Shown: piece after piece, positions 16,774-40,922 of the stretch
Numbering within the stretch: position 1 is the stretch's first letter
Layout: each line of letters begins with the position of its first letter
Assembly (NCBI GenBank): GCA_039799905.1
Contig: JBDLRP010000031.1
Location: 1-43,683 of the forward strand
DNA length: 43,683 nt
Source: Pseudomonadota bacterium
Lineage (GTDB): Bacteria; Bdellovibrionota_B; Oligoflexia; Silvanigrellales; Silvanigrellaceae
Reading direction: 5' to 3'
Made by a program: the position numbers and the translations under genes
Notes under the pieces: model-generated
Seen by the model: only the letters and a program-made list of their open reading frames with translations
The model's database searches: none
Told to the model about the DNA's origin: nothing

Positions 16774-18768
16774 TCAGATAAATATCCAGATGCACAGAGC
16801 AACAATCCCGATGAACAACACCTTGAGATAGTTGCGCACCAAACCAGACTGAACATCACTCAGAACTGAAGTCACCAAGTAAATGCCGCGCGGGCCCTCG
16901 TTGATGATGCCTTCAATAATCGCTCGGTCGCCCACCTTGAAAAACACGTCGCCAGCCTTTTTCAACGGTTCGATAATCACAGCCTGGTAAAGTTCGTCGA
17001 TTCTCCACTTATCCAAAATCAGCCGGTACAGGCCACCCACCGCCTGAGCGATGGACTCGCCGCCCTTGGGTCCTGACTTGTAGAGCGAAATGGCAAAGCC
17101 GCTCATGACCAGCATGATGAGTGTCGACGTACCCATCAGACCCCATTCGAGCGCTGCGGAGCCGTGAGCGTCGCCATGTACCGCAGTCATCGTTTGTTTT
17201 GCTGCAGATATCACTGGTGAGAGCCATTGAGTGATCAGATTTTCGCTCGCATGAATGCCAAGCACGTGCATAATCGCGTGCGGCATCGAAACGTAGCCGC
17301 CAATCACCGACAACACTGCGAGGATCATCAGCGGCAGAGTCATAGCCAAAGGATTCTCGTGGATCTCATGATGGTGATGATCGTCGTGTCCGTGTCCGTG
17401 GTGGTGGCCATGCTCGACGCGGCTTTCACCAAAGAACACCAAATAAGTCAGGCGTACCATGTAAAAGCTTGTGCAGGCAGCGGCCAACGCACCGGTCGCC
17501 CACAACAGCGGATGACCAAATGTTCCCGACCATGCGTAATAAAGAATTTCGTCTTTTGAGAAGAATCCGGAAAGCCCCGGAAAACCGATGATGGCCAACG
17601 TGCCGATTACGAAAGTCCAGCCGGTGATTGGCATCTTTTTGATAAGTCCGCCCATCTTACGGATGTCTTGCTCGTGGTGCATCGCGTGAATGACACTGCC
17701 GGCTCCGAGGAACAGCAGGGCCTTAAAGAACGCGTGCGTCATCAGGTGTGCGACGCCAAACTGAAATGCACCCACACCGCAACCGAGCACCATGAATCCA
17801 AGCTGACTGACCGTGGAGTAGGCGAGGACTTTTTTGATGTCGTTTTGCACAAGGCCGATTGTCGCCGCAAACAGCGCCGTTGCAGCACCAATGACAGCAA
17901 TCGTCGTCATGGCTTCGGGGCTGTGTACAAGCAAAAAGCTCATACGGGTCATTAGATAAATGCCCGACGTCACCATTGTTGCTGCATGGATGAGCGCAGA
18001 CACTGGAGTCGGGCCAGCCATCGCGTCAGGCAGCCAGATATAAAGCGGCAGCTGGGCCGATTTACCGGTCACGCCAAGCAGCAGACAAAGACCAATTGCC
18101 GTGAGCATCGGACCGTTGTTCGCGGCAAGCTCGTTTGTCAGTGCCTCGGCGATCTGAGCATAATCGAGAGTTCCGAAAAGCTTGACGGACATAAACATCG
18201 CAAGAAGAAAGCCGAGGTCCCCGACGCGGTTTGCAACAAACGCCTTCATGCCGGCGCGCGCATTGGCCTCGTCCGAATACCAGTAGCCAATGAGAAGATA
18301 AGAGCAAACACCCACGCCTTCCCAGCCAAGAAACGTTACGACCATGTTCGAACCAAGCACGAGCGAGAGCATCGAGAAGACGAACAGATTCAGGTACGCA
18401 AAAAACCGGTACACGCCCTTTTCATGCGACATATATTCACCCGCGTAGAGGTGAATCAAACTGCCGACTCCTGTGATGATGAGCAGAAGAATACCCGACA
18501 GTCGATCGACCGTCAGGCTGAAGGGAACTTCAAGCCGGCCTTCATTGAACGGCACCGAAATCCACGTGAACAAATCCGTGCGGACAACTTCGCCTGCGCT
18601 GACAGGACCAAAGACCAGCAAACATGAGAGCACGAACGGAATGGCAATTGCGAGTGTCGCAACAGTGACCGTTACAAGACGGGGCGCACTGCGCAGAAAA
18701 AACCCGTTCAGCACGGAACCGAGCAACGGTATGAGCAGAACAGCGGCGAGCATCGTCTGATAGTTCAT
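16774..18768 (-). CDS. nuoL: NADH-quinone oxidoreductase subunit L
   Basis: GWEGVGVCSYLLIG, GKSAQLPL..WLPDAMAGPTPVSALIHAATMV and THAFFKALLFL. Confidence 0.97.
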   Translation of the reverse strand: MNYQTMLAAVLLIPLLGSVLNGFFLRSAPRLVTVTVATLAIAIPFVLSCLLVFGPVSAGEVVRTDLFTWISVPFNEGRLEVPFSLTVDRLSGILLLIITGVGSLIHLYAGEYMSHEKGVYRFFAYLNLFVFSMLSLVLGSNMVVTFLGWEGVGVCSYLLIGYWYSDEANARAGMKAFVANRVGDLGFLLAMFMSVKLFGTLDYAQIAEALTNELAANNGPMLTAIGLCLLLGVTGKSAQLPLYIWLPDAMAGPTPVSALIHAATMVTSGIYLMTRMSFLLVHSPEAMTTIAVIGAATALFAATIGLVQNDIKKVLAYSTVSQLGFMVLGCGVGAFQFGVAHLMTHAFFKALLFLGAGSVIHAMHHEQDIRKMGGLIKKMPITGWTFVIGTLAIIGFPGLSGFFSKDEILYYAWSGTFGHPLLWATGALAAACTSFYMVRLTYLVFFGESRVEHGHHHGHGHDDHHHHEIHENPLAMTLPLMILAVLSVIGGYVSMPHAIMHVLGIHASENLITQWLSPVISAAKQTMTAVHGDAHGSAALEWGLMGTSTLIMLVMSGFAISLYKSGPKGGESIAQAVGGLYRLILDKWRIDELYQAVIIEPLKKAGDVFFKVGDRAIIEGIINEGPRGIYLVTSVLSDVQSGLVRNYLKVLFIGIVALCIWIFI

Positions 18769-18770
18769 GA

Positions 18771-19076
18771 TTAACCCCTCAATGCCTTGAGATCGTCCGC
18801 TTCAATCGATGCTTTTGTTCGATACAGCGAAATGATCATGGCCAGACCGACAGCGGCTTCACATGCGGCAACCGCCATCACAAAAAACATCACAACCTGA
18901 CCATCGATGGTGTTCGTCAATCGACTTGCCGAGACAAACGCGAGGTTGGCCGCGTTCAAAAGAATTTCAACGCTGAGCATCATGAAGAGAATGTTCTTGC
19001 GGAACATGACTCCAGCCAGACCCACCAAAAACATGAGGAATGAGAAGTAAAGTCCGAGTTCAGGCAGCATTAGCAT
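18771..19076 (-). CDS. nuoK: NADH-quinone oxidoreductase subunit K
   Basis: LSVEILLNAANL, GQV..FFVMAVAACEAAVGLA and C-terminal LRG; start set at ATG 19076. Confidence 0.95.
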   Translation of the reverse strand: MLMLPELGLYFSFLMFLVGLAGVMFRKNILFMMLSVEILLNAANLAFVSASRLTNTIDGQVVMFFVMAVAACEAAVGLAMIISLYRTKASIEADDLKALRG

Positions 19077-19629
19077 GTTCGGCGCCTTTCTTCTTGGAGA
19101 TAACAACCGCTCCAATGGCGGCAGCCAGGATGAGGAAACTGATCAATTCAAACGCCCAGAGATAGTCGACAAACAGAGATGCTGCCACGTTCTTAACATT
19201 CTCGCTTTCAGCAAACACGGAGCGGTGCAGGTGAGGCGCTGACTCGGGCTTTTGCAAACCCAGCTGTTCGATACCTGTGGTGAGGAATCCGCGTCCGACC
19301 TTTGTTCCAAGCAAGAGAGCGACAACGACACCCAACGCCGAGAGAATCATTTCGCCAACAGTGACACCACCATAGCGCAGCTCTTCGGGCGGAAGATTGA
19401 GAAGCATGATGACGAAAACAAACACCACCATGATTGCGCCGGCGTAAACAATGATCTGCGCAGCGGCGGCAAAGTGCGCATCAAGTAGGCCGAACATTCC
19501 GGCAAGCAGGGTCATGACCCCAATCAGCACCATCGCCGCGCTCACGGGCCAGCGGCGTGTGATCATCACAGCCGACAAGAGGACTGCGGCAACCCCCATG
19601 ACGATGAAAGACAGCAAACTTAAATCCAT
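19060..19629 (-). CDS. nuoJ: NADH-quinone oxidoreductase subunit J
   Basis: QIIVYAGAIMVVFVFVIMLL and LFVDYLWAFELIS..L.A.IGAV; ATG 19629 with GAGG RBS. Confidence 0.95.
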   Translation of the reverse strand: MDLSLLSFIVMGVAAVLLSAVMITRRWPVSAAMVLIGVMTLLAGMFGLLDAHFAAAAQIIVYAGAIMVVFVFVIMLLNLPPEELRYGGVTVGEMILSALGVVVALLLGTKVGRGFLTTGIEQLGLQKPESAPHLHRSVFAESENVKNVAASLFVDYLWAFELISFLILAAAIGAVVISKKKGAEHANAA

Positions 19630-19660
19630 TCCAATCAACCTCGCGAGCGGTGCGGTCGTC

Positions 19661-20800
19661 TTAAGTCAGTCGAAGAATTCCAACAATCAAAGCCAATACA
19701 ACGAGATTCACCAGCGCCACTGGCAACATATACACCCAGCCGACGCGCATCAGCTGGTCGTAGCGGAAGCGTGGCAATGTGAAGCGAACCTGGACAAACA
19801 AAAACATGAAAATCGCAACTTTGGCGATGAGAACACCCAAGCCGATGAGCGCAGTGATCCATGTTGCAGGTTCAGCGGAAACAATCGGAGTCAACATTGC
19901 GATGATTTGTGATTGCGGCAGATAGGGAATCTCGTAGCCACCGAGAAACACGCACGTGGTGAGCGCAGAGAGTGTGAACATCATGGCGTACTCGCCAAGG
20001 AAGAACAGCGACCAGCGCATCGACCCATACTCAACCAAAAAGCCGGCGACGAGCTCTGCTTCACCTTCGGCAAGGTCAAATGGCAAACGGTTGGTTTCGG
20101 CAAACATGGTCACGACAAAAATCACAAAGGAGATGGGCGAAAGAAAAATTCCCCAGTTGGGCAGGAATCCAAACAGCAGCGTGTCTGTTTGCGCTGCGAC
20201 CATACCCTGCAGGTCGAGTGTTCCGTAGAGAAACACCATCGGCAAAAGTGCGAGGCCCATTGCCAGTTCATAGGAGATCATCTGTGCCGACGCGCGCAGG
20301 CCGCCGAGCAGTGCGTATTTGTTGTTGGATGACCAACCGGCAAGTGCAACACCGTAAACACCAAGAGAGGACATTGCGAACAGGTAAAGAAACCCCGCGT
20401 TCACACTGACAGGCTGAAGGTTGATCGTGTGACCTGCAACAACAATTTCCTTGCCGAGAGGAATGCCTTGAATCGCAAGCAAGCCCATGACGGCCGGAAC
20501 AATCGGCGCGAGAATGTAGAAGAAACGGTTGACGTGTTTGGGAACGAAATCTTCTTTGAAGAGCAGCTTGATTGTGTCGGCCAGCGGTTGGCCGAGTCCA
20601 AAAAGCTTGAAGCCAAAGAGGCCGACACGGTTCGGACCGATACGGCGCTGAATGAACGCCGCCTGTCTGCGTTCCACCCACACCATGATGGGTGCGACCT
20701 GCAATGCAATGACAAGTGCTATGGCGATTTTGCCGATTGTGGAAACGAGTCCCACATTACTATCGAGAAACTGAACGAGCGCGCCCGCAGTTGCGTCCAT
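19661..20800 (-). CDS. nuoH: NADH-quinone oxidoreductase subunit H
   Basis: ERR...Q.RIGPNRVG, QPLADTIKL, GGLRASAQMISYE, AETNRLPFDL.E.E.ELV and PRFRYDQLM. Confidence 0.97.
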   Translation of the reverse strand: MDATAGALVQFLDSNVGLVSTIGKIAIALVIALQVAPIMVWVERRQAAFIQRRIGPNRVGLFGFKLFGLGQPLADTIKLLFKEDFVPKHVNRFFYILAPIVPAVMGLLAIQGIPLGKEIVVAGHTINLQPVSVNAGFLYLFAMSSLGVYGVALAGWSSNNKYALLGGLRASAQMISYELAMGLALLPMVFLYGTLDLQGMVAAQTDTLLFGFLPNWGIFLSPISFVIFVVTMFAETNRLPFDLAEGEAELVAGFLVEYGSMRWSLFFLGEYAMMFTLSALTTCVFLGGYEIPYLPQSQIIAMLTPIVSAEPATWITALIGLGVLIAKVAIFMFLFVQVRFTLPRFRYDQLMRVGWVYMLPVALVNLVVLALIVGILRLT

Positions 20801-20810
20801 GAAGTCCCCC

Positions 20811-21176
20811 TCAATCCCAGTTCAGAGCGCCGCGACGCAAAATATAAATGTAGCCGACAATCAACGTGCCGACGAAAAGAGCAACCTCAATGATGCCGAA
20901 CCATTTGAGTTCATCAAACAGAACCGCCCACAGGTAGAGAAAAATCGTTTCAATATCGAAAAGGATAAAGAGGATCGCCGTCAGGTAGAATTTAACCGAC
21001 AATCGCTGCCGTGCCGTTCCAACCGGTGTCACCCCGCATTCATACACATCCAGCTTCGCGGGATTGGGTTTCTTGGGGCCGAGCAAGAAGGAAGCGATAG
21101 TCGCGCCTCCGGCAATCAGCAATCCCAAAGCGAGTGCGATCAATATCGGCAGGTAAGGGTTGATTGACGCTGTCAT
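20811..21176 (-). CDS. nuoA: NADH-quinone oxidoreductase subunit A
   Basis: YECG, FYLTAILFILFDIETIFL and RRGALNWD; ATG 21176 with GGAGG RBS. Confidence 0.96.
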   Translation of the reverse strand: MTASINPYLPILIALALGLLIAGGATIASFLLGPKKPNPAKLDVYECGVTPVGTARQRLSVKFYLTAILFILFDIETIFLYLWAVLFDELKWFGIIEVALFVGTLIVGYIYILRRGALNWD

Positions 21177-21248
21177 CGTCAACGCCTCCAAAAAAGTCAA
21201 AAATCGGGTGCGGCACTGGCCTTAACCCATAAACGGATCTGGAACAAG

Positions 21249-23853: not shown

Positions 23854-25164
23854 TCAAAAATAATGTTGCATACCGACAACCCAGCTGCCCGGCCTGCGCA
23901 GTCCGGTCAAGGCGCGCGCATAATCAGCCCTCAGGCGGAGTCTTGCAATAGGGCGAAAGCCCATACGCAAACCGGCACCCGCACTGGCTGCCAAGGGGTA
24001 GGGCCATTCTTTGAGTGATTTGCCAGCATTACCGGCATCCGCAAACAAAACAGTTTGCAGAACGACGTTCTCATTCACCAAGGCCACCCAACGCTCCTCC
24101 ACATTGGCCGCCCATGCCAGCTGGCCCAGACGCTCGCCGTCATCAAGACCCCTCACAGAATCGAGGCTTCCCATGCGAATCAAGGAGAGCAGACTGTCGC
24201 CGTTGGTCCAATGCGCCTGCAGGCGGACACCGAAATTGTTCTTTTCCGACCAGCTCCAAAAATGCGTATCGCTGAGCGAGACTGTCTGAATGTTCTCGTG
24301 TTCGGAGTCGTTGGTCGGAAAAAAATTGGCCGCGCTCAGCTCAATTTTGTGGCCATCCCAAACATAGTCGTTGAGATTCATGGCATTGAGACGGAGTGAC
24401 ATGCGCGTGACAATTCCTATTTCGCGGCGACGTGAAAAATTTTTGTACGAGTTGAGCGGAGCAGAAAGCTCGCCGAGCAGCTCTCTGTCGACAGACTCCA
24501 AAGCGACACCCACATCGACAAGCGAAATGCGCCGCTGCACTCCGACCGTCAGTTTGTCATTGCGCGCCAATGGTGTTGCATAGCTGCGGGTCGCCGGCTC
24601 AAAATAAAAATACGGGCGACGGCCCAATTGAGCATCGGCCATCACCCTCCAGACCGGACGTGCGACGTAAGGCTGCCGCCACCATAGATTGATACCCGGC
24701 GCTCCGGCGAACTGCTCATATTGAAGTCCAGCCTCAATTCCTCTGCCCAACAGGTTGAGGTCATACAATCCGACAACTAGAAAGTTTACGCCGCCGCCGG
24801 TACCGCCGCGCAGCACAGGAGTGAGTGTCCACTTTTCAATAAAATCGAAAGTAAGATTGTATTTGCCGTCAGGAGTCTCTTCAAAATCGACTTCAACAGC
24901 GACAAAAAAATTGGTGTTTCTGAGCCGCTGCGCTGCACGAAGGATGCTTGCCACTCGCACTTTTTGACCGACGGCAAATCCCAGCTCTGCGCGCACGTAT
25001 TCCTGCCGTGTCCTGTGCAACCCGATTAAATCGAGAGATCCGATGACAATTTCGGACTGTGCCGGAAGCTTCTCGGTGCTGTCGTCTGCATCGTCCCCGT
25101 CAGCACGTGCAACATGCGAAGCGAGAGTGATGAGACAAGCGAGAAAAAGAAAAAAACATCTCAC
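23854..25164 (-). CDS. Omp85 (BamA/TamA-like) outer membrane protein with a single POTRA
   Basis: Signal peptide (..VARA), POTRA-like GLHRTRQEYVRAEL..QRLRNTNFF, NLLGRG, VRG motif, FADAG, GAGLR and C-terminal F; GTGA overlap with the upstream gene. Confidence 0.8.
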   Translation of the reverse strand: MRCFFLFLACLITLASHVARADGDDADDSTEKLPAQSEIVIGSLDLIGLHRTRQEYVRAELGFAVGQKVRVASILRAAQRLRNTNFFVAVEVDFEETPDGKYNLTFDFIEKWTLTPVLRGGTGGGVNFLVVGLYDLNLLGRGIEAGLQYEQFAGAPGINLWWRQPYVARPVWRVMADAQLGRRPYFYFEPATRSYATPLARNDKLTVGVQRRISLVDVGVALESVDRELLGELSAPLNSYKNFSRRREIGIVTRMSLRLNAMNLNDYVWDGHKIELSAANFFPTNDSEHENIQTVSLSDTHFWSWSEKNNFGVRLQAHWTNGDSLLSLIRMGSLDSVRGLDDGERLGQLAWAANVEERWVALVNENVVLQTVLFADAGNAGKSLKEWPYPLAASAGAGLRMGFRPIARLRLRADYARALTGLRRPGSWVVGMQHYF

Positions 25165-26123
25165 CAAACCGGACTCACCTCACGCATTCCCGCCTTGCGG
25201 ACAAGGCGGTTGAGCCGTTCAAAAATATTCTGACGACCCAGCTCCAACATCAATGCCGCGGCCGTCTCAGCCGCAGACAGTTCACGCTTTTTCACACTCT
25301 GAAAAAAGGGATAGACGATATCCTGATTGAAAAGACTCTGTCCGGCAATGGCAAAGGAAAAAGGCGCGCATTCGGCCAGCGCACCGGAGTCGACGAAGCG
25401 CCTCAGCAAAGTATCGGAAGAATAGGGAACCCTTCTGTTGATGACGCGCAGCGGCGAGTGTGGCATAAATTCAACCCAAACCCACGTTGCAATGGGAGCG
25501 TCCGGAATTTCTCGGAGCTTTTCGACAAAAGGATAGCCAACGCTCCCGCAATTGAACCAGACAGACCGTCCGGACGGGTCACAATGCCGCCCCAGATAAT
25601 GGCTGTGGCCATTGAAATAAAAACTTCTACCGAGCGGAGTCTGTTCGAGAAATTCCTCTGCGAAAGATCCGGGAACACCAGCCTGTTGTGCAAAGAAATC
25701 AGGGACCCTGTTGTTTCCATGTAATGCACCATGAACGGCATGCAACGGTGCCTCGGCTGCCGACCAGCATGCCACAGATTCCTTCTCGACCGTGTTCAGT
25801 TGGTCGCCCAACTGCCGGACGGTCCACGGAACAAATCGCCACAACGGCCTAAGAAATTTTTCGTGCTCGGGATTATTGCGGCATTCAATCAGATAATCTT
25901 CATGATTTCCGAGCAAATGGGGTACAGAAATACTCTGCAGTGTTTCAAACACGGCGAGTGGATCGGGACCTCCATCGAAACTGTCGCCCAAGCAAACAAT
26001 CTGCGGCTTTCCAAACTCTCGCTGCTGCGAAAATTCGCCAATGTCATTCAACACGGCCTCGAGTGCTGTCTGATTGCCGTGAATGTCCGTCACAAAGGCA
26101 AACGCCTGCTGCGCTGAGTGCAT
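25161..26123 (-). CDS. Calcineurin-like metallophosphoesterase
   Basis: DIHGN, LGD, GNHE, VHG, GHSH and NCGSVG motifs; TGATG overlap with the upstream fusion gene. Confidence 0.88.
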   Translation of the reverse strand: MHSAQQAFAFVTDIHGNQTALEAVLNDIGEFSQQREFGKPQIVCLGDSFDGGPDPLAVFETLQSISVPHLLGNHEDYLIECRNNPEHEKFLRPLWRFVPWTVRQLGDQLNTVEKESVACWSAAEAPLHAVHGALHGNNRVPDFFAQQAGVPGSFAEEFLEQTPLGRSFYFNGHSHYLGRHCDPSGRSVWFNCGSVGYPFVEKLREIPDAPIATWVWVEFMPHSPLRVINRRVPYSSDTLLRRFVDSGALAECAPFSFAIAGQSLFNQDIVYPFFQSVKKRELSAAETAAALMLELGRQNIFERLNRLVRKAGMREVSPVW

Positions 26124-29083
26124 CAGTCACTTCCTGAAGGTGTAATGTGCGGCGCCGCGGAATAATCCATCTGCAGAATTTTTTTGAACAGCTCTGAGAA
26201 TGCAATCTTTTGCTCATCCGCCGTGAGCGGCAGCTGAGCGCGGCGGAGCAGTTCAATTGTCGGACCATGACCCATAAGGTCATCGGTCAGCGGGGCAATG
26301 ACGGGCGCATTGCCCAATCCGCAATCCGGACGCGAGAGGAATTGGATGCCGGTATTGTGCAGCCAGTGGCGTGGCAAGAGAACTTTCTCGGCCACCGTCT
26401 GGATGTAGCCCTCTTCATAAAATTGCAGGAAGGCGTCTTCATCCGGATGGTACATTTTATCGCCGACAATCCAGTGCCCGACAGCAGCAAGGTGAACACG
26501 GATTTGGTTGGTGCGGCCTGTCTGCGGCATGCATGCAAAAAGCGAGTAATCTTCCCACTGCGCAAGACGCAGACAGTGGGTAAGTGCATCGAGACCTTCG
26601 TTCGGGTTGTGCCAAAGCTTAAGACGAATGCGCGAGTTGATGGCCGGACCAATCGGCAGGCTCACGCGAAAAGCATCGGGCAGCGGCCTGTCGCCCTTGG
26701 TGACAGCAAGATACATTTTCTTCACCGATGAATCGCGGAAGCTCAAGGAAAGATCACGGCGTAGCGGAGTGCTGCGCGCACAAACCAAGATTCCCGAGGT
26801 TTCACGATCGATGCGGTGCACCGGCGCCGCATTCGCATAGCCCATCTTTTTTGCAATTTCGATGAAGGTGTTTTTTCCGTAAAGTCCCGCAGCATGAACA
26901 ACCAAATTGCCCGGCTTGCAAAAAACAGCGGCGTCTCCATCGTCATACACTACGGCGATATCGGTCATCATGTCGGGTTCGTATTCAGGCGGATGAAAGA
27001 GCCACAGCTGGTCGCCCTGCTTGAGCACGTAGGTCGGCTTGACGTTCAAAAGGTTCGCAGGTGCGGCATCGCTGGTGTGATTTTTGGGCGAATTCTGCTC
27101 GATGAGAACTTCGCCAATCTCGACACGCTGCTGCCAGATGTCGCGCGTGTGGAATTTAAATTTTTCGCCGAGATGCCGGTCGAGCCGCAGGCCGACTCCG
27201 ACATGTTCGAGCCGTCCGCCCAATCGGCGGAAATGTTTTTTGTCGGGCACAACCCGCTGCTCACGGCGCCGCGAGATACGCGCACGTAACATACTTTGCA
27301 ATACTTTCTCGGGCAGGCCGTCCTCACCCTCTTCATCGCCCGCAGTTGGCGTGTAACGGGCATTTTTCTGTTCGGCGATGAATCGTGACATGGCGGCAAG
27401 AACAAGCTGCGCATCGACGCGGGTGATACGCTGGAGCGGCTCATCCAATACTTCGAAACAGGCCGCAGCTCCGCCGCCGGTGAGCAGCACCTGACCAACC
27501 GAATATCGACGCACGAGCGATTCGACGAGCCCTGCAAGCTGGAGTGATATTCCGCGCAACATCGAAAGTGGCGTCGAAAATGGTCCGTCGCGCTCAGCCT
27601 GAGGTGAAGGCAAAGTCGACGGGAGTGTAACGTTCGGCAGGCGAGCGGTTTTCTCGTGCAGGGCGCGCAGCGACATCGCCGGACCGGCAAGAATAATGCT
27701 GTCGAGGATTTTAAGTTCGGGACTGACGACAACTGCTGTCAATGCCGTGCCCACGGAGAAGACGGCAACGGGCTTTGCAAGTTGCCGAGCGTGTTGTGCA
27801 GCGGCCCATGCCTGCAAAGCGCGATCCACCCCGATATGACCAGCAACATATTCAGCGTCAAGTCCGGCATCGCGCATCACAGCATCGGCATTCACGGGCG
27901 ACAGCGAAACTTCGCGGGCGGCATTTCCATGATGAATGAACAAAGACTCAATGCAGTCGACAACCTTTGCGGAATGACCCGCATTTGCAACTGCCGACCA
28001 CACCAGCTGGACGTGCTGGGCGCCCTCAACGGCAGCAAGAAGACTCTGTGCCAGCTCGGATTTATTGAAAAGATTCTGTTCTGCTACAGTGCGTTTATCC
28101 AACTGAGCCCAGTTAATTTGTCCGGCACGTACTGCTCCGCTGCACTCGCTTCGCCAGTGAATCTGCGTGTTGCCAAAATCAACGCAGACACGCGCCGAAA
28201 TTTGCGGGAACGAAACATCGGCCGAAAGAATGGCATCACGATGCCCTTCAAGCAGAAGACCACCCTCGGCGGAAAGTCCGGCAAACGCGCCGGTTTGCGC
28301 GCCTTTATTGACGGACAACGGAGTTCCGAGTGGCAACGAACGCTCGAGCGTCAAATGCATCAGCTGTTCGGACGAGCGTTCGATCTGCAGATAATCAGCC
28401 AACTCGCGTTCGATTTCCTCGGCAACGACCATACTCATGGTCTTTCGCATTCCCGCGGTTACAGCAGACGGATTCACTCCCCAAAGAGAAAGAACACTGC
28501 TGGCCTGCGCAACTTGCTCTGGAGCGGAAAACAAATTGAGACCAAGGCCGATGCTGACAAACTGCAGACTGTCGGCACGGAAGGATGACTCACAAAGAAT
28601 GCCTGCGACTTTTTTGGGTGCGTGGGAGAGTCTGCCCTGCGGCCACGCCCACACATCGTTGGGCCATTTCAGACGTGCCTCACAGGGCGATTCAGCGGGC
28701 ATACAGCGGCTGAATTCAAGCATGTTTGCCAGACGCGCGCGTGCACGCCACAGTGCATCAACCACCGCACATCCGACGGCAAGGCTCAGCCAGCTGAGTG
28801 GAATTTTGACAAATTGTGCGGGAATCACAAAGGTACAGGGACCAAAATCTCCCAGCTGCTGCACACCGCCGGCCACATCCGCGCGCTCAACCACTTGCGA
28901 ATTTTCTTGCCCAGCGCCTGCTTCGGAAGCACCGGCCTGTGTCCACACACTTCCGCCCCGCCCGCGTCCCGCCGTTTGCACACGGCACATCACTGCAAAG
29001 GGTGTCGCACTGCCGCGCTCAGCAATTAGCGTGCGGGCCAAATCCATTGTCGAGGTCGTTTGCACTACGGTGAACGTTTTCAT
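26123..29083 (-). CDS. Triple fusion: biotin-protein ligase (BirA, no HTH) + type III pantothenate kinase (CoaX) + RluA/RluD-family pseudouridine synthase
   Basis: BirA: QTAGRGR, LKWPND, KVAGILCE. CoaX: DFGNT, GVDR, GTA, TGG. Rlu: RLDRHL (S4-like), KPGNLVVH, HRIDRETSG, TGRTNQIRVH, IVGDKMY. One uninterrupted 986-codon frame. Confidence 0.88.
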   Translation of the reverse strand: MKTFTVVQTTSTMDLARTLIAERGSATPFAVMCRVQTAGRGRGGSVWTQAGASEAGAGQENSQVVERADVAGGVQQLGDFGPCTFVIPAQFVKIPLSWLSLAVGCAVVDALWRARARLANMLEFSRCMPAESPCEARLKWPNDVWAWPQGRLSHAPKKVAGILCESSFRADSLQFVSIGLGLNLFSAPEQVAQASSVLSLWGVNPSAVTAGMRKTMSMVVAEEIERELADYLQIERSSEQLMHLTLERSLPLGTPLSVNKGAQTGAFAGLSAEGGLLLEGHRDAILSADVSFPQISARVCVDFGNTQIHWRSECSGAVRAGQINWAQLDKRTVAEQNLFNKSELAQSLLAAVEGAQHVQLVWSAVANAGHSAKVVDCIESLFIHHGNAAREVSLSPVNADAVMRDAGLDAEYVAGHIGVDRALQAWAAAQHARQLAKPVAVFSVGTALTAVVVSPELKILDSIILAGPAMSLRALHEKTARLPNVTLPSTLPSPQAERDGPFSTPLSMLRGISLQLAGLVESLVRRYSVGQVLLTGGGAAACFEVLDEPLQRITRVDAQLVLAAMSRFIAEQKNARYTPTAGDEEGEDGLPEKVLQSMLRARISRRREQRVVPDKKHFRRLGGRLEHVGVGLRLDRHLGEKFKFHTRDIWQQRVEIGEVLIEQNSPKNHTSDAAPANLLNVKPTYVLKQGDQLWLFHPPEYEPDMMTDIAVVYDDGDAAVFCKPGNLVVHAAGLYGKNTFIEIAKKMGYANAAPVHRIDRETSGILVCARSTPLRRDLSLSFRDSSVKKMYLAVTKGDRPLPDAFRVSLPIGPAINSRIRLKLWHNPNEGLDALTHCLRLAQWEDYSLFACMPQTGRTNQIRVHLAAVGHWIVGDKMYHPDEDAFLQFYEEGYIQTVAEKVLLPRHWLHNTGIQFLSRPDCGLGNAPVIAPLTDDLMGHGPTIELLRRAQLPLTADEQKIAFSELFKKILQMDYSAAPHITPSGSD

Positions 29084-29089: not shown

Positions 29090-30040
29090 TCACACCACCG
29101 GATACAGCTGCAGACTCATGTCGACCCACGTGGCCTGATGAATAAGCGCACCAGAACTCAGATAATCAACTCCAAGCTGTGCGACGGCTGCGATATTTTC
29201 TTCGCTCAAATTGCCACTGACCTCGAGTGCAGCGGCACCGCCCGCAGCATTTCTTTCCTCAACTGCAATCCGGACATCGGACAAAGGAAAATTGTCGAGC
29301 ATGATGACATCCGCTCCGCCTCTGAGCGCCTCGCGGAATTCGCTCAGGTTTGTGACTTCCACTTCGAGCTTAGTCAGGACAGGGGCGTTTTGTGCCGCAT
29401 GCCGCAGTGCCGCGGAGATTCCGCCAAAACTGCGCAAATGATTTTCTTTGAGCATCAGGCCGGTGTCGAGTGCATGCCGATGATTACGCACGCCCGCCAG
29501 ACGCGTCGCATATTTTTCATAAAGACGCAGACCCGGCGTTGTTTTGCGTGTTTCAAGCAACTGCGGTGAGCGGCTTTGCACGGCTGCCGCGGCGCGCTGG
29601 ACAACGTCGAGCATTTTTTTTGATTTTGTCGTGATGCCGCTCAGGTGTGCCGATAAATTCAAAGCCACGCGCTCGCCGAGCAGCAGACACCGTGCATCGC
29701 CCTCACCCTCAAGCACTACATCGCCGGCACGCACCTGCGCACCGTCTTCAAACGACGACTTGAGCGTGAGACCGGCGTGACCGTGCGCACGCTGAAAGAC
29801 AGCCGCCATGAGCGTAAGACCGCACAAAATAAAATCCTGCTTGGCGATAATCTGCATGCGCATCCGTGCGATGTCGGCAGGCTGAGTCCATTGGCTGACA
29901 TCTCCGCCGCCGACATCCTCCGCAAGCCACGCGTCAATGTCGGCATGCACACGGTGGGGCGAAATTCCGAACTGAGAGACGATGCGGCAATCGACCCACT
30001 GCGGATTCAATTCCTTGTTTGACGATTTATCTTGGACCAC
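29090..30040 (-). CDS. nadC: Nicotinate-nucleotide pyrophosphorylase (quinolinate phosphoribosyltransferase)
   Basis: ER.ALN...LSGI.T, TRKTTPGLR..EKYA, HR..L, KENH, EVEV, IMLDNF and GVDYLSSGAL; GTG 30040 with GAGGAG RBS. Confidence 0.95.
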   Translation of the reverse strand: MVQDKSSNKELNPQWVDCRIVSQFGISPHRVHADIDAWLAEDVGGGDVSQWTQPADIARMRMQIIAKQDFILCGLTLMAAVFQRAHGHAGLTLKSSFEDGAQVRAGDVVLEGEGDARCLLLGERVALNLSAHLSGITTKSKKMLDVVQRAAAAVQSRSPQLLETRKTTPGLRLYEKYATRLAGVRNHRHALDTGLMLKENHLRSFGGISAALRHAAQNAPVLTKLEVEVTNLSEFREALRGGADVIMLDNFPLSDVRIAVEERNAAGGAAALEVSGNLSEENIAAVAQLGVDYLSSGALIHQATWVDMSLQLYPVV

Positions 30041-30142
30041 ACAGGACTCCTCAGCTGATGCGTGGACTTTCCCACGGCGACAGCTATTGTGACACAGCCG
30101 CCGGAAAAGCACCGGTCCGGCTCCTTGGGGAGAACTCCGGCC

Positions 30143-31676: not shown

Positions 31677-32921
31677 ATGAAAAACCGGAAAAGTTTCTTC
31701 AAACGCCCGCTCGGCCTGTTCATAATGGGCACTTTGATTGTCGCTTCCGCGGCATTCGCATGGAATCGGTACAACCGCTCCGCTCAATTCGCAAAACAGC
31801 AAAACGCGCGCACGGTGAGTGTCGTCAAGCGAGATGTACGGCGTGATTTGCTGCTGACAGGCAAAGTTCTGCCCTCGAGTTCGATTGCGGTTTATTCACC
31901 GGTTTCGGGTCAGCTCAAGCAAATCCACGTGCAAGAGGGAGAACGCGTCAAAGAAGGTCAGCTGCTGTTTGCAGTGCTGCAGGACAGCAGTGGTCAGCGA
32001 GAACTTGAAGCACGTCAAGCTGAAGTTCAGAGAACACGACTCGAATTGCAGGCAGCAGAAGAAAATCTCGACCGCCGCCGCAACGTCAGAGACCTTTTTT
32101 CACAAGCCGAAAATGAAAAAGCTGAAAACGACTACGACCGCGCCCAGCTGGCCCACACTGCGGCCAAGCAGCAACTCAGCCTGCTGGAAAATGCGCTCGG
32201 TCTTTCGAACGACGGAGCATCGAAAAAGAGCAAGCGCAGCGGCGATTCACGGACGTCGGTCATCTTCATCAAGGCTCCCAAGCAGGGAGTGGTGACGTTC
32301 TTGAATAAAGCAGTCGGAGAAAGTGTCATGGCAACTGCAGAAAGTGCGGAAGCCACTGGACGCGAGGTTCTGATTATCTCCGACACAGAAAAAATGATGG
32401 TGCGCTCGCGTATTTTGGAAGCTGATTTGGCGGTAGTGCGCGCAGGACAACCCGTACAAATCAAACTCGATGCATTTCCGCAAAAGCCCTATAGCGGCAC
32501 AGTAAGCCGCATCAGCCAACAGGGCGTTGAGGACAAAACCGGCGGCTACACTTATTTTGTCACCGACATGCTGATTGAAAATCCGGATGCTGACGTGCGG
32601 TCACAGATGAACGCGAGCATTGAACTTGTTGTCGCTGAAAAAAAGGACGTGATGGCGCTGCCCGCAAATGCGGTCGCAACCTTGGGAGGATATTCGGTTG
32701 TCGAATTGCCGCGTGAATCTGCCGGCCTTCCGCCAAAATACAAAGCAGTCAAAACTGGAATTTCGACAGACCTGTGGGTTGAACTGACAGGCAACGAACT
32801 AAGCGCCGGTGACAAAGTGTTGGAGATTGATTTTGCCAAACTCGACCTAAAGAAACTCGGCGAAGGAAAACTCGGTCAGGACTCCGCAGGCACAGGCACT
32901 CCACACACTTCCAGAGAATGA
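31677..32921 (+). CDS. macA: Periplasmic adaptor (membrane fusion protein), MacA-like
   Basis: N-terminal TM, lipoyl half-motifs SPVSGQL..VQEGERV and IKAPKQGVV, coiled-coil hairpin, GQPVQIKLDAFP. Confidence 0.85.
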   Translation: MKNRKSFFKRPLGLFIMGTLIVASAAFAWNRYNRSAQFAKQQNARTVSVVKRDVRRDLLLTGKVLPSSSIAVYSPVSGQLKQIHVQEGERVKEGQLLFAVLQDSSGQRELEARQAEVQRTRLELQAAEENLDRRRNVRDLFSQAENEKAENDYDRAQLAHTAAKQQLSLLENALGLSNDGASKKSKRSGDSRTSVIFIKAPKQGVVTFLNKAVGESVMATAESAEATGREVLIISDTEKMMVRSRILEADLAVVRAGQPVQIKLDAFPQKPYSGTVSRISQQGVEDKTGGYTYFVTDMLIENPDADVRSQMNASIELVVAEKKDVMALPANAVATLGGYSVVELPRESAGLPPKYKAVKTGISTDLWVELTGNELSAGDKVLEIDFAKLDLKKLGEGKLGQDSAGTGTPHTSRE

Positions 32922-32931
32922 GATCACACTC

Positions 32932-34992
32932 ATGACGCGCTCAGGTGAATCACTGTTTCAGCTGGAACAGGTAACCTATACCTATACAGCGCTCAACACG
33001 CCTGCTTATGTCGCTTTGAAAAAGCTGAATCTTGAGATCCGTCGCGGAGAGTTTGTCGCCATTATCGGACCGAGCGGCTCTGGCAAGTCGACACTGATGC
33101 ACCTGCTCGGGCTCATGGCCGAACCCAGCGATGGCGTTCTGAAAATTCATGGCACCGACTTTGCAAAACTCTCAGCCAACGAAAAATCTGCACTCAGAAA
33201 CAAACACATCGGCTTTCTTTTTCAACAGTTCTTTTTGCTGCCGCAGCTGAGCGTCATCGAAAATATCATGCTGCCAGCCGAATACGCGGTAAGCATGCAG
33301 CAGCATGAAAATCTTTACGAAAAAGCAATCAGTCTGGTGAAACGCTATGGCCTGACGGGACAGGAGCACAAAAAACCCACAGGCCTTTCAGGCGGTCAAA
33401 AACAACGTGTGGCGCTGTGCCGTGCGCTGATGATGGAACCCGACGTTCTGCTCTGTGACGAACCCACCGGTGCTCTCGACAGCGCCACCGCGCAGGAGGT
33501 TCTGCAAACCCTTGCTGAACTAAATGCAGCGGGAAGAACGGTGATCGTCATCACTCACGACCCCGAGGTTGCAGAACGTGCAGGGCGCATCATTAAAATT
33601 GTCGACGGCAACATTGTCTCCGACTCGGTCAACAAAAAGACTTCGCTACACCCTGATGAGTTAACTTCTTTCACACCAGAGGACGTGCGCCCTGGCGCTG
33701 CGTTTCTCTCTGAACGGGTGAAGCTCGCAATCAAGCAGATGTTCGTGCCGACCTGGCAATCGCTCAAAACACAAAAATTGCGGACAGCCCTCACCATGAC
33801 CGGACTGCTGCTCGGCGTTGCAAGCGTGTTCATCATGCTGACGCTCACCGGACGTGTCGGTAAAATCTTTGAGGATTTCTTTGCCACACAGGGTTCACGC
33901 GAAGCGTTCGTCAATTTCGATCACCGCCTTGCAGAAAAAACGGGTGCACCGCGCTGGCGTGGACTCAATGCCAAAACAGAGCTGCCCAAACTCAGTCAGC
34001 GCGTTGAACGGTACGGAAGAATCGAGCCCAGTGTCAGCACCGGCAGCTGTGCCATTGTTTCATCCACGGGCAACATTAAAAACAGTCTGGTCGGATTAAA
34101 TTCACTTCAGCAGTTGCGCGCAGGCTCCATGCGCATTGCAAAGGGCCGCATGCCGATGCCGCACGAATTTGACGGCAAACAGCCGGCTCGCGTTGCATTA
34201 CTTGGCAGCGATGCTGCTGTGAAACTCTTTGCACCGCGCGGCAGCGGCAAAAACACCTCTGATTCAGTGATCGGGCAGCACATCGTCGTTCGCGGATGCG
34301 AATTTGAAGGCATCCTGACGGTCATCGGTGTGCTTGAGCCGATAGACACCCTCTTCGACAGAGGGGTCAACAGCTCTGTTTACATACCAACACAAACGCT
34401 CTTCGCGGGTGGTGTATCGCTCTACAAACCTTTTTTTACAGTGGTCCCGAATGAAGGTGTGAGCCCGACGTGGTTTGCAAAACACGTCATAGGCCACCTG
34501 ACGGTGATGACAGGCAATCAGTTTCCGTTCCGGTTTTTTGCTGCCGAACAAGAGCTTGAGAAATTCAACCTGATGATGGGAATCCTGACTGGCCTGACGC
34601 TCGTGATTGGAGCTCTGTGCACACTCATCGGCGGCATCGGGGTCATGAACATCATGCTCGTGAGCGTGCATGAGCGTGTTCAGGAAATCGGCATCCGCAA
34701 GGCTGTCGGTGCACGCGACTCACACATCCGGTCGCAGTTTCTCTTCGAATCCGTCGGGCTCTGCTTGATCAGCGGCGGGCTTGGTCTTTTGCTTGGAATT
34801 GCAGTCAGCTCTCTGGCATTTGCACTGGCCAGACTTTTTTTACCTAAGGTTGAAAACCTCAGTTACCAACTCGATCCTATGGCCCTGCTCATCTCGATTG
34901 CTGTAAGCGTCGGCGCTGGCATCGCTTTCGGCACTTGGCCGGCACGCAGAGCCGCTGCCATGGACGTCGTTGATGCGCTCAAACAGGAGTGA
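32932..34992 (+). CDS. macB: MacB-like ABC ATPase-permease fusion (copy 1)
   Basis: GPSGSGKST, LSGGQKQR, DEPTGALD, ITHD and GGIGVMNIMLVSVHERVQEIGIRKAVGA. Confidence 0.92.
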   Translation: MTRSGESLFQLEQVTYTYTALNTPAYVALKKLNLEIRRGEFVAIIGPSGSGKSTLMHLLGLMAEPSDGVLKIHGTDFAKLSANEKSALRNKHIGFLFQQFFLLPQLSVIENIMLPAEYAVSMQQHENLYEKAISLVKRYGLTGQEHKKPTGLSGGQKQRVALCRALMMEPDVLLCDEPTGALDSATAQEVLQTLAELNAAGRTVIVITHDPEVAERAGRIIKIVDGNIVSDSVNKKTSLHPDELTSFTPEDVRPGAAFLSERVKLAIKQMFVPTWQSLKTQKLRTALTMTGLLLGVASVFIMLTLTGRVGKIFEDFFATQGSREAFVNFDHRLAEKTGAPRWRGLNAKTELPKLSQRVERYGRIEPSVSTGSCAIVSSTGNIKNSLVGLNSLQQLRAGSMRIAKGRMPMPHEFDGKQPARVALLGSDAAVKLFAPRGSGKNTSDSVIGQHIVVRGCEFEGILTVIGVLEPIDTLFDRGVNSSVYIPTQTLFAGGVSLYKPFFTVVPNEGVSPTWFAKHVIGHLTVMTGNQFPFRFFAAEQELEKFNLMMGILTGLTLVIGALCTLIGGIGVMNIMLVSVHERVQEIGIRKAVGARDSHIRSQFLFESVGLCLISGGLGLLLGIAVSSLAFALARLFLPKVENLSYQLDPMALLISIAVSVGAGIAFGTWPARRAAAMDVVDALKQE

Positions 34993-34995
34993 ACA

Positions 34996-36396
34996 ATGAA
35001 AAAAACCATTGCGGCATTTATTTTGTGCATCCTAATCGTCACCGCGCCGAACACTGCGCAATCGGCGGATTTCAATAATCAGCTGCCGCCGGAACTCAGC
35101 GGGTGGCAAAAAGAAATCAAAGAACTGCTCGGCCAATTCAGTACAATCGACAGTGCAGAAGCGGCTGCAAGTGAGGCTTCAGCAGCAGTGGAAACCAGCC
35201 GGCAGAAATTTTATCCGACACTCTCGGCCGGAAGCCAGCTGAGCCGTTCCCAGACGAATGCTGACAGCAACAACGGGCAAAATCTCAAAAGCGGTCCCGA
35301 CAATGATCTCCAGTTAAACCTGACGCTGCGACAGAATGTTTTCAGCGGGGGTGTCGATTGGCAGAAAATGACTCTTGCCCAAAAGCGAGAGAAGCTTGCA
35401 CGTCTGAGAGCGATGCTCGCAAAAAGAAACCATGTGCGGCAGTGGCTTAAGGATGTGGCTTCGATTCTTCACCAACAACAGATCGTCGCCCTGCAGACTG
35501 AGGCAGCGACACAGGCAAAGGCACTCAAGGTTCTTGCCACCAGAAAAGAGGCGAGCGGATTTCTAGGGCGGCGCGATCTGCTCGACTCGGAGCGCGAGTT
35601 ACTGCGAGTCGAACAAGAAACATTGCAGGCAAACAACACTCTACAGGAACTACAAACACGCTATTCGAGTGTCTACCGAATGGCATTATCCAAGGATCAC
35701 AAAACCGACGACTTCAAAGTTTTCCTCAGTGCCGCAGCAGGCATGGACTCAGACAAGGCCAAACATGCGGACGCTGCAGGAAGTCTCATGACTGTCGCGC
35801 TTTCGGAGTTGGAGCTCTCACTTGCCGAAGAAGACGCGACTCTTGCCTCGCGCGGACGATTTTCACCACGTATCGACCTCGCCGCACAGGCGTTGAGTTC
35901 AAGACAATTGAACGACACGCGCACAAATTCTGGCACTTTAAATTCGCGCGGCTCCGCAGCGGGCGATTCAACGCGTTCGTGGAGTTTGTCGCTCAGCGGT
36001 GAACTTGCGTTCAATCCACCGACTGCCTTTGGCGTAATGGAAGAAGCCCGGGCGCGAATATCATCGGCGCGCATCAGCCAACAGTCGACCCGCGAAAGTG
36101 CCATCGCGAGTCTGAACAATACACACACGCGACTGCAGCAAATCCGCGAACAAAAACGCGGCTACGAACGGCTTCTCACACTCACACGACAACTGCATGA
36201 AAAAAATCAGCGCCTTTTTGAAGCGGGAGAACTTTCCATCGACAGGCTGATTGCCTCGCAGCAGACACTCAGCCGCGACACCATCACACTTGCGTCAATA
36301 GGACATGATGAGCTGCGACTGGCCATCGACATCTCGCTGAGCCGCAGCTGGAATCTAGCCCCCGCTGCGGGCAACACTCAGGCAACAACGCCATGA
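34996..36396 (+). CDS. tolC: TolC family outer membrane efflux protein
   Basis: Signal peptide, repeated P.L/I...beta-strand + helix pattern (FYPTLS, FSPRID), RLFEAGELS motif, position within the mac operon. Confidence 0.8.
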   Translation: MKKTIAAFILCILIVTAPNTAQSADFNNQLPPELSGWQKEIKELLGQFSTIDSAEAAASEASAAVETSRQKFYPTLSAGSQLSRSQTNADSNNGQNLKSGPDNDLQLNLTLRQNVFSGGVDWQKMTLAQKREKLARLRAMLAKRNHVRQWLKDVASILHQQQIVALQTEAATQAKALKVLATRKEASGFLGRRDLLDSERELLRVEQETLQANNTLQELQTRYSSVYRMALSKDHKTDDFKVFLSAAAGMDSDKAKHADAAGSLMTVALSELELSLAEEDATLASRGRFSPRIDLAAQALSSRQLNDTRTNSGTLNSRGSAAGDSTRSWSLSLSGELAFNPPTAFGVMEEARARISSARISQQSTRESAIASLNNTHTRLQQIREQKRGYERLLTLTRQLHEKNQRLFEAGELSIDRLIASQQTLSRDTITLASIGHDELRLAIDISLSRSWNLAPAAGNTQATTP

Positions 36397-38453
36397 ACAG
36401 ACCTGTCATTGAACTGCGTGATGTCAACTTCACATACCAAAGCGCGGAGCTCAGTTTTTCAGCGCTAACTTCACTGAACTTGAATATCGCAGAGGGTGAA
36501 TTCACCGCCATCATCGGGCCGTCCGGCTCGGGAAAATCCACTCTTTTGAATATTCTTGGATTGCTTGCAAGACCGACCTCCGGGTCGATGATGCTCTTTG
36601 GAAGTTCGCTTGAACGCCTCGACGATGATCAACTTGCCATCCTGCGCAATCGCGACGTAGGGTTCGTCTTTCAGAATTTTTCACTGGTGGCTCGCCTCAC
36701 TGTTCTCGAAAACATCCTGCTGCCATCGGCCTTCACAGCAGTGCAAGAACATCCGTTGGAATACAGTGAGCAGCTCCACACACGCGCGCTCGGTCTGCTG
36801 GAGCGATTTGGACTCGCAGAGCTCAAAGACAGATTGCCACGCGAACTTTCCGGCGGCCAAAAGCAGCGGGTTGCCATCTGCAGAGCTCTTCTCCTTGGCC
36901 CCAGACTACTGCTTGCCGACGAACCGACGGGTGCGCTTGATTCGGCAAGTTCACGGGAAGTCATGCGCATGCTCTCGGAACTGCACCGCGAGGGTTGCAC
37001 AATCATAGTCATCACCCATGATCCAGATGTGGCCAAACAAGCCGAACGGGTCGTCTCCCTGCACGACGGACGCATTCAATCCGATGTGCGTGCTTCACAA
37101 CCCAAGGTTGAATCGCAAGTGGAGAATTCGGCCGGCAACGCGGGTTTGCCAGCCGCCGATCGTTCCTTCGCAGGTTTACGCTACATGCTTGGCAAGAGCG
37201 TCATCTTGGCAAAGCGCAGTTTAGCCACTCATCGTGCACGCAGCCTGCTGACAGGGTTGGGCTTGTTCATCGGAATCCTCAGCCTCATAGTCATCGACGG
37301 TCTCGGCGAAATCGTCGAAAATTCATTCAACAAACTTTTCTATACGAGTTCAGTTCGAAAAGCTTATGTTTATTATGATGCTGACCGCACCGGTTTTCAT
37401 GGCGCGCGGCGTTCGGCTTGGCGGGGGCTGCACGCCCAAAGTGAATTCCCGCGACTCGCACAGATGTTTTCGGAAAAAGGGATCATCCGTCCGTTTCTGC
37501 GCAGCGACACTTGTCAGGTTAGAAGTGACTCAGGAGTCTTCCGCACACGGCTTGCAGGCATGAGTGACGGCGACGAATTTTTGGAAATGGACACCGATCT
37601 GACGGCAGGGCGATGGCCCAGCGTCGCGGAATTTTCTGCAGGAGCAGCCGTCACGGTGCTGGGCTCCGACACAGTCAACCAACTTTTTAAGATCAACGAC
37701 CCACGCCGCCGCAATCAAAATTTCCCTGTCGGCGAGCGCGTCATCGTCAACAACTGCAACACTCAGGTGACACTGACTGTCATTGGTGTTCTGGGCAAAA
37801 GAGACACCTCTTTTGGCAACCGCGACGCGAACGACAACTTGTATGTACCGATCAACACACTGCTCAGCCGCATGGGGCCGACATTCTTCACATGGTTCAG
37901 TCTGCTCCCGCGCGATGGAGTCGACTCGCGGCAGCTTGCCAATGAGGTCACCACTTTTCTCAGTCTGCAATCCTCCGGCAAGTTGACATTCGGCAGCACA
38001 ATCCCTGCAGATATTCTTGATCGTGTGCGGAGTTTTTTGTGGATCATTCAGGCCATCGTCGGCTTCATCGGTGCGCTCTGCCTGTTCGTCGGCGGCGTGG
38101 GAATCATGAATATGATGCTTGTCACCGTCGCAGAGCGTACACGAGAAATTGGACTCCTGAAGAGTCTGGGTGCACGGCAATTTCATATCCGCTCGTACAT
38201 TCTCACTGAGTCAGTGTTGTTGTGCTTTTGGGCGGGTTGCGCAGCGGTTGTCACAGGTCTTGTCGTAAACAACTTGTTCTCACTCGGGGTGAGCATTTTT
38301 GTACCGATACTCAGAGAATTCCGCTGGGTCACAGCACCGGCCGGACTGACGCTGGGACTCCTCGTGAGCATCGGCTGCGGGCTCGGCTTTGGCGCGATCC
38401 CCGCTGCTAGAGCCGCGGTTCTTGATCCTGCGGAATGTCTGCGCAGCGAGTGA
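36393..38453 (+). CDS. macB: MacB-like ABC ATPase-permease fusion (copy 2)
   Basis: GPSGSGKST, LSGGQKQR, DEPTGALD, ITHD and GGVGIMNMMLVTVAERTREIG; ATGA overlap with tolC. Confidence 0.92.
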   Translation: MNRPVIELRDVNFTYQSAELSFSALTSLNLNIAEGEFTAIIGPSGSGKSTLLNILGLLARPTSGSMMLFGSSLERLDDDQLAILRNRDVGFVFQNFSLVARLTVLENILLPSAFTAVQEHPLEYSEQLHTRALGLLERFGLAELKDRLPRELSGGQKQRVAICRALLLGPRLLLADEPTGALDSASSREVMRMLSELHREGCTIIVITHDPDVAKQAERVVSLHDGRIQSDVRASQPKVESQVENSAGNAGLPAADRSFAGLRYMLGKSVILAKRSLATHRARSLLTGLGLFIGILSLIVIDGLGEIVENSFNKLFYTSSVRKAYVYYDADRTGFHGARRSAWRGLHAQSEFPRLAQMFSEKGIIRPFLRSDTCQVRSDSGVFRTRLAGMSDGDEFLEMDTDLTAGRWPSVAEFSAGAAVTVLGSDTVNQLFKINDPRRRNQNFPVGERVIVNNCNTQVTLTVIGVLGKRDTSFGNRDANDNLYVPINTLLSRMGPTFFTWFSLLPRDGVDSRQLANEVTTFLSLQSSGKLTFGSTIPADILDRVRSFLWIIQAIVGFIGALCLFVGGVGIMNMMLVTVAERTREIGLLKSLGARQFHIRSYILTESVLLCFWAGCAAVVTGLVVNNLFSLGVSIFVPILREFRWVTAPAGLTLGLLVSIGCGLGFGAIPAARAAVLDPAECLRSE

Positions 38454-38812
38454 GTGCGGTCAAGATGGCAGACTGAAAGTCTCTGGTTTTTGAAAAAACT
38501 ATTCTTTTACATGTGAGCATTCAACAAACTAAACTGATTGATAAAATATTCATACCCATCCCCGATCATCGCACACAGCATCTTCTTTTAACCATACAAG
38601 CCAGAGACTTCTTTCTTTTTGGTCGCACAAGCAATTCCAAAACTTCTCAGAACACACAAAATATCCAAATATTATTGGCGGGTTTCTTCGCTGCCCAAAC
38701 CGACCAGGGCAACATGGACAACTCAAGTCAGGCCTTGTTTCTACCGATACTGACTAGGCCGTTTGTTGCGGAAATTGCATTTTGGACTGACGGTCACCGG
38801 TAGGACGGCTTA

Positions 38813-40807: not shown

Positions 40808-40851
40808 TGACGTATGACAAAACCGGCGGGTGCATTGTCCAATTCTGAACA

Positions 40852-40896
40852 AGTCAGCAGCGGGCTCCGCTATGGCGCCATTCCCGCTGCTGGACT
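40852..40896. terminator. GC-rich stem-loop between convergent genes
   Basis: cagcagcggg (40855-40864) pairs with cccgctgctg (40883-40892); the loop contains the palindrome atggcgccat. Confidence 0.55.
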
Positions 40897-40922
40897 AAAA
40901 ACCGCACTCAAACTCGGTTTTC

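Follow-up and report, generated by a model that had tools for sequence, protein, structure and literature searches.

A conserved fusion of biotin ligase, type III pantothenate kinase and pseudouridine synthase domains in the Silvanigrellales

The window analysed here comprises positions 1 to 43,683 of contig JBDLRP010000031.1 of assembly GCA_039799905.1, the source genome (G000), from a bacterium of the family Silvanigrellaceae. Its minus strand carries a triple-fusion gene (26123..29083) that was read from the open reading frame (ORF) list, Pfam and an AlphaFold model. The product, P0001, is 986 amino acids (aa) long, and the frame contains no internal stop. Three Pfam domains were detected above cut-off, in the order biotin ligase (BPL_LplA_LipB, best stretch aa 107-183, E 2.6e-10), type III pantothenate kinase (Pan_kinase, aa 300-526, E 2.1e-20) and pseudouridine synthase (PseudoU_synth_2, aa 719-867, E 8.4e-23). 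The AlphaFold model, built from a 69-sequence alignment, has a mean predicted local distance difference test (pLDDT) score of 89.6 and a predicted template modelling (pTM) score of 0.62, with high confidence inside the domains and low confidence for their relative placement. Its Foldseek matches are RluD/RluC/RluA, biotin ligases and type III pantothenate kinases (PanKs). The same full three-domain frame is present in 28 of the 33 Silvanigrellaceae genomes, which bears out the single three-enzyme frame proposed in the initial annotation.

Continuity across the fusion junctions is supported by assembled contigs, not raw reads. Contigs of run X4, from another study, cross both junctions without indels (27136-27508 and 27500-29042), and a contig of run X9 crosses 27193-27609. 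One X4 contig skips 325 bases, but one side of that skip is just 22 letters long, and such sides are flagged as often foreign. Among the 40 differences listed (47 further ones exist), 34 are substitutions within the gene, of which 26 are silent, eight change a residue and none creates a stop. The 986-aa frame is genuine and no assembly artefact.

The Silvanigrellales are a small order of freshwater bacteria. The fusion stands in one frame in assemblies of one to three contigs (G016, G123, G125, G127), and fusion proteins are also recorded from named isolates, namely Silvanigrella aquatica, Fluviispira sanaruensis, F. vulneris, F. multicolorata and Pigmentibacter sp. Of the 77 matches to the full-length protein, all but two represent this fusion, in one of its forms or as a fragment, and the remaining two share one domain; the protein searches scored the top ~8000 candidates, so that rare independent fusions elsewhere could escape. 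Apparent breaks in G017, G019 and G128 are contig ends, the visible joins being intact. Three genomes depart from the full form. In G021 (1.8 Mb), CoaX and the synthase are separate overlapping ORFs and the linker is gone, while the break at BirA is an N gap rather than a true split. In G126 (1.5 Mb, 72% complete; locus L097:501-2795), BirA is joined to the synthase, the whole CoaX domain having been lost in frame; no CoaX was found elsewhere in this 72% complete genome, in which coaBC and coaD remain and panC is only partial, and the bacterium is possibly host-dependent. In G025, the sole genome of the order's other family, CoaX and the synthase are fused and a short BirA lies on the opposite strand. 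These natural splits show that the join can be lost, and they appear to be confined to small-genome lineages. The CoaX tree nests G021 among the fused forms (support 0.93-0.98), as does the joined tree (Shimodaira-Hasegawa approximate likelihood-ratio test 98.6), and G021 belongs with fused forms to GTDB genus g5; in the synthase-only tree, G021 falls nearer the base. A secondary split in G021 is thus favoured by the trees, not proven.

These proteins of ~1040 aa are named simply 'type III pantothenate kinase' in RefSeq. One JGI entry (P0048) automatically bears all three enzyme names, and JGI often labels the fusion '23S rRNA pseudouridine1911/1915/1917 synthase' (RluD), which is likely a mis-transfer. 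The literature searches gave no account of the triple fusion, most subscription papers and supplements lying outside their reach, and word searches showed that neither PMC12321486 nor PMC11656739 mentions these enzymes. PMC12570885 and PMC6412123 contributed nothing further. The triple fusion is order-wide and apparently undescribed, in agreement with the initial annotation, which had known of no such protein.

The biotin protein ligase domain (aa 1-292; 28208..29083, minus strand) was assigned from PF03099 and a Foldseek match to the M. tuberculosis enzyme, and the N-terminal DNA-binding domain is absent. It contains GRGR (39-42), W47, KWPND (139-143) and K158, and R40, R42, W47, K139, D143 and K158 are invariant in all 69 fused homologues. 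By motifs and fold, it has the hallmarks of class I ligases, which are the GRGRxG/W biotin loop, KWPND, the catalytic Lys and a C-terminal SH3-like domain. P0001 passes the PF03099 cut-off and scores 45.8 bits against TIGR00121 (cut-off 83.1); it has long insertions. The fused BirA is the only TIGR00121 locus in all 25 family genomes searched, none of which reaches the cut-off. A search for other copies of birA and coaX, a point raised in the initial annotation, found both genes to be sole in the same 25 genomes. G000 encodes a biotin carboxyl carrier protein with AMKLM and has no bioB above cut-off. The BirA domain likely biotinylates carboxylases.

The type III PanK domain, CoaX (aa 297-575; 27359..28195, minus strand), was identified by PF03309 and PDB profile matches. 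Its motifs are DFGNT (D302), GVDR (D420), SVGTA (S443 replacing Asp) and TGG. D302 is kept in 68 and D420 in all 69 of the fused homologues, and the DxGNT and GxDR aspartates together with the ASKHA fold (motifs, profile and Foldseek matches) are hallmarks of the type III family. No type I PanK above cut-off was found in any of 41 genomes. G000 contains panC and coaBC, and its coaD falls just under cut-off. The coaD matches (G000:C32:58090-58530 and relatives) belong to frames of 316-368 aa, roughly double the normal size, which hints at a further fusion. The CoaX domain likely starts CoA synthesis from pantothenate. PanK-III enzymes are dimers, and every domain would therefore be present twice in the assembled fusion product.

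The synthase part comprises an insertion-bearing S4-like RNA-binding domain (aa 614-700; 26984..27244) and an RluA-family catalytic domain (aa 701-950; 26234..26983; PF00849), both on the minus strand. No Pfam S4 match was obtained for P0001. Nevertheless, aa 614-700 align by profile with the N-terminal region of RluD from E. coli, and stand-alone orthologues match PF01479, so the S4-like domain named in the initial annotation stands. The catalytic domain has the RluA-family (COG0564) hallmarks, namely the KP motif, the HRxD catalytic Asp (HRID, D759) and TGRxxQIRxH, with PF00849 above cut-off and a TIGR00005 score of 140.6 (cut-off 192.7); H756, R757, D759, Y791, R862 and H864 are invariant in the 69 fused homologues. 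The acidic-then-basic linker (GDEEGEDG..RARISRRREQR), HRID and FSVGTA are all present as first read.

The 'RluA/RluD' identity given earlier is not supported for this domain. G000 has five PF00849 genes, among them an RluD orthologue (L052; 209 bits to NF008385) that groups with E. coli RluD, and an RluB-like gene (L055). The fused synthase scores 68 bits against NF008385, where 351 would be needed, and 53-68 bits against the E. coli RluA/C/D/TruC equivalogs as a whole (cut-offs 286-378). In the tree, its clade (support 0.99) also contains a fungal S4+RluA protein and two fusions, one with QueG and one with a UPF0176/rhodanese protein; these sequences were gathered for their similarity to the query, a choice that itself promotes the grouping. 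The ESM Atlas returned generic RluA clusters only. P0204 and L100:2805-4727 (G044) are fusions of QueG with a synthase of this subfamily, and the fusion partner in P0076 is a UPF0176 and rhodanese protein that we take to be TrhO. The fungal protein, P0322, is presumably Pus8/9-like. In G031, mnmG lies near the stand-alone synthase gene. QueG, TrhO and MnmG act on the tRNA anticodon, and our best guess for the target, a candidate from context and clade held with moderate confidence, is therefore U31/U32 of the tRNA anticodon loop. Transfer-messenger RNA (given the smpB link described below) and rRNA are alternative candidates. In G028 (L092), queG abuts a stand-alone synthase gene. Another of the five G000 genes, L054 (G000:C32:9035-9439 and beyond), is a second long synthase frame of 538 aa, with an S4-less synthase domain carrying SRLD and a C-terminal part of ~330 aa that is methyltransferase-like in appearance.

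The order in which the parts came together can be traced in the neighbouring orders. The gene nadC, for quinolinate phosphoribosyltransferase (29090-30112, minus strand; TIGR00078, 266 bits, above cut-off), ends 6 bp upstream of the fusion gene, as initially annotated. It precedes the fusion in 10 of the 15 mapped loci of the order (window included) and stand-alone birA-coaX in five of eight outgroup loci; it is an operon partner kept since before the synthase joined. CoaX was matched in 85 of 97 genomes of other orders of the class, and a hand count places 72 of these 85 in frames with the length of a BirA-CoaX protein (467-794 aa). The 794-aa frame of G061 is a shadow extension across nadC and not a NadC fusion. 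Both BirA and CoaX domains were read directly in 11 outgroup genomes, and none of those proteins carries the synthase. The synthase orthologue occurs in 125 of 131 Oligoflexia genomes, and outside the order the listed synthase frames are all shorter than 410 aa except one QueG fusion (G044), with eight weaker matches unlisted. Stand-alone orthologues are found in about 90 sister genomes. Of the 90 other-order genomes with both genes, 50 have the synthase and smpB head-to-head no more than 400 bp apart (loci L048, L049, L087, L088, L090 and L091 being examples), a number that rises to 59 when up to 6 kb is allowed, and the two are unlinked or on different contigs in 31. In G000, smpB lies on a contig other than that of the fusion. 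In G035 and G039, the gene directly after birA-coaX, in the same orientation, is thiI (L082:7461-8915; L085:6153-7613), a further neighbour with a role in tRNA modification.

The simplest reading is a likely two-step origin, with BirA-CoaX formed first and the synthase moved and captured later. The birA-coaX pair would already have been fused behind nadC across the Oligoflexia. In the ancestor of the Silvanigrellales, the synthase gene would have left smpB and joined the 3' end of birA-coaX in frame, after which the synthase would be made from the nadC operon, its own start gone. The join may then have persisted since no part is expendable and any split would require a start codon that did not exist before.

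Bifunctional BirA/type III PanK proteins are known in Neisseria. BirA-CoaX fusions form the curated family NF009862 (PRK13325), with the domain order BirA then CoaX as here, and the two-domain proteins of the Oligoflexia match both parts weakly (66-70 bits), far from the cut-off of 761. The family is absent from the best 25 matches of P0001; its 592-position model lacks the synthase, whereas P0001 lacks the N-terminal helix-turn-helix. The E. coli enzymes RluD, RluA, RluC and TruC share the fold and the HRxD catalytic motif but belong to a separate clade. The QueG and TrhO fusions have the same synthase subfamily behind another enzyme; however, their partners modify the tRNA anticodon, whereas the partners here are cofactor enzymes. 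The closest precedent is yeast Pus8/Rib2, described as an S4-like, RluA-family tRNA U32 synthase joined to a riboflavin enzyme, the DRAP deaminase (PMC5699540). Both cases link an S4-like, RluA-family synthase to an enzyme of vitamin-cofactor biosynthesis. The yeast protein differs in being eukaryotic, in serving riboflavin instead of biotin and CoA, in having the synthase at the N-terminus with a single partner, and in being an independent fusion. It was compared by description, and the fungal protein P0322 falls in the clade of the fused synthase.

The ratio of nonsynonymous to synonymous substitution rates (dN/dS) was taken from those of eight genome pairs in which dS could be estimated, dS being near saturation in most pairs. 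It ranges over 0.06-0.18 for BirA, 0.06-0.20 for CoaX, 0.02-0.12 for the synthase and 0.01-0.14 for the S4-like domain, and the three enzymes are under purifying selection. Taken with the single frame, the three folds, the conserved catalytic motifs, the sole copies and the distribution, this probably means that one chain carries three co-expressed housekeeping enzymes, each working independently, with the activities predicted above. The synthase would make pseudouridine in RNA, most likely in the tRNA anticodon loop. The parts are separable, and the splits in G021, G025 and G126 speak for independent domains.

Several points weigh against this reading. The fusion is retained across the whole order, and the basic helix found only in fused forms has a dN near 0 in genus g1, a conservation exceeding the needs of a passive tether. 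The activities, RNA target, transcript and protein are predictions from the genes, and the call of a tRNA target rests on context. An approximately unbiased test leaves the monophyly of the fused forms without G021 unrejected (p 0.20, 2000 replicates). As for the kinase, the search for type II PanK found none in 41 genomes, with controls equally silent, and is thus uninformative; G126 (72% complete) keeps coaBC though it has no CoaX match; and the pantothenate-binding 'xT' motif has apparently lost its Thr in the Silvanigrella group. In T. maritima PanK, loss of the third conserved Asp reportedly lowers activity, and a lower activity of the CoaX domain is possible. The targets of RluA paralogues in B. 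subtilis, where YjbO is the Psi31/32 enzyme, are described as unpredictable from similarity (PMC7408541).

Among the alternatives to three independent enzymes, regulatory coupling survives best. Ligand or RNA binding at one domain would tune another through the conserved helix; for example, cofactor status would gate tRNA pseudouridylation, or tRNA would gate CoA synthesis or biotinylation. The helix (aa 587-602, KVLQSMLRAR; 27278..27325, minus strand) is the best foothold for this idea. It is conserved in fused forms only (R602 in 66, S/T597 in 66 and M598 in 54 of 69 homologues), is absent from stand-alone orthologues, and may be an added RNA-binding or docking element. Retention across the order, the position of thiI in G035 and G039, and the convergent fusion of yeast Pus8/Rib2, where possible cross-talk is described as an open question (PMC5699540), also agree with coupling. 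On the other hand, the helix stays in G126 although CoaX is lost, and is missing from G021 and G025. The preceding linker (aa 576-586; 27326..27358, minus strand) is acidic, differs widely in length among genera and is predicted to be disordered (pLDDT <50 at 577-589), and the model leaves the domain positions unfixed. The synthase subfamily also fuses with unrelated upstream neighbours, and about 90 sister genomes manage with stand-alone orthologues. The natural splits speak against any need for coupling, and we consider it doubtful. The same low weight applies to its fullest form, in which the only biotin ligase and the only PanK are tethered to a tRNA anticodon-loop synthase and a helix that arose with the fusion lets cofactor or RNA binding at one end adjust the other.

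It is quite unlikely that the gene is a fusion on paper only, yielding two products by an internal start near M598 or by cleavage of the linker. The Met at this position, the disordered linker and the two short entries P0078 and P0079, which begin at M598, would fit such an arrangement. Nevertheless, no Shine-Dalgarno-like ribosome-binding motif before M598 is conserved in 22 genomes, the codon there is CTC in G018, and the short entries cluster with full-length members of 1109 and 1090 aa and are likely broken gene calls.

The initial annotation read the Ser of FSVGTA correctly and took it as a sign that CoaX is weak or a ligand sensor. A weak or non-catalytic CoaX, with CoA synthesis started by another route, now seems very unlikely. 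In its favour, Asp is missing at position 443 in all 69 fused homologues (Ser in 62, Gly in five, Ala in one and Thr in one), CoaX diverges fastest of the enzyme domains across the family (22-34% identity), it scores just short of the TIGR00671 cut-off (56.4 vs 58.2 bits), and it is dispensable in G126. However, D302 and D420 are kept, and the substitution is common to related enzymes. The 11 outgroup BirA-CoaX genomes have Ser, Thr, Asn or Ala at the xDxGTA site and never Asp, Burkholderia PanK-III structures, one of them solved with pantothenate, have Thr there, and the third Asp of DxGTA is also missing in the PDB members 4o5f and 5b8h, so it is not universal in the family. A stand-alone CoaX adjoining coaBC in G028 has Asp at the equivalent site. 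CoaX is furthermore the sole pantothenate kinase found, beside panC and coaBC, and its dN/dS resembles that of BirA. The loss of the Asp predates the joining of the synthase, because it is absent in the outgroup proteins that lack a synthase. Lastly, an assembly or frameshift artefact, for which nothing speaks except that the public contigs each cover only part of the gene, is refuted by the 28 genomes with the frame, the near-complete assemblies and the independent contigs over both junctions.

Downstream of the fusion, a calcineurin-like phosphoesterase ORF (25161-26123, minus strand; PF00149) overlaps its stop by 1 nt. The coupling to a phosphoesterase noted initially is thus present in the window but not conserved among relatives: a phosphoesterase follows the fusion in G001, G015 and G018, a Cys/Met pyridoxal-phosphate enzyme in G016, G022, G023 and G024, and still other genes in other genomes. 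A promoter scan was at chance level (7 vs 4.4 +/- 2.0), and none of the terminator-like sites (22 vs 13.9 +/- 3.7) was interpretable. Among the public holders of the sequence, no RNA data set was listed, which has no bearing on expression. Elsewhere in the window, translations read by eye place NADH dehydrogenase (nuo) subunit genes at 16774-21200 (minus strand), with same-strand ORFs running beyond them to about 7.5 kb, and an efflux-type cluster of a membrane-fusion protein, two ABC-permease fusions and a TolC-like protein at 31677-38453 (plus strand). The region 38000-43000 has a GC content of 0.48-0.50 vs 0.54 and includes a 664-aa ORF with no Pfam match.

The fusion provides a clean molecular signature of the Silvanigrellales, with an origin traceable in two steps, and corrects an annotation in which the RefSeq name hides the only birA found and a conserved synthase. 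It also draws attention to an RluA subfamily that is uncharacterised although 125 of 131 Oligoflexia genomes encode it, and that is linked to smpB, QueG and TrhO. The natural split and deletion forms are usable as controls, and the fusion offers a culturable bacterial case for the question raised by Pus8/Rib2, namely whether a fused vitamin enzyme and synthase influence each other. If the domains were indeed coupled, the supply of fatty-acid cofactors would be linked to translation, and bacteria would have evolved, independently, their own counterpart of yeast Pus8/Rib2.

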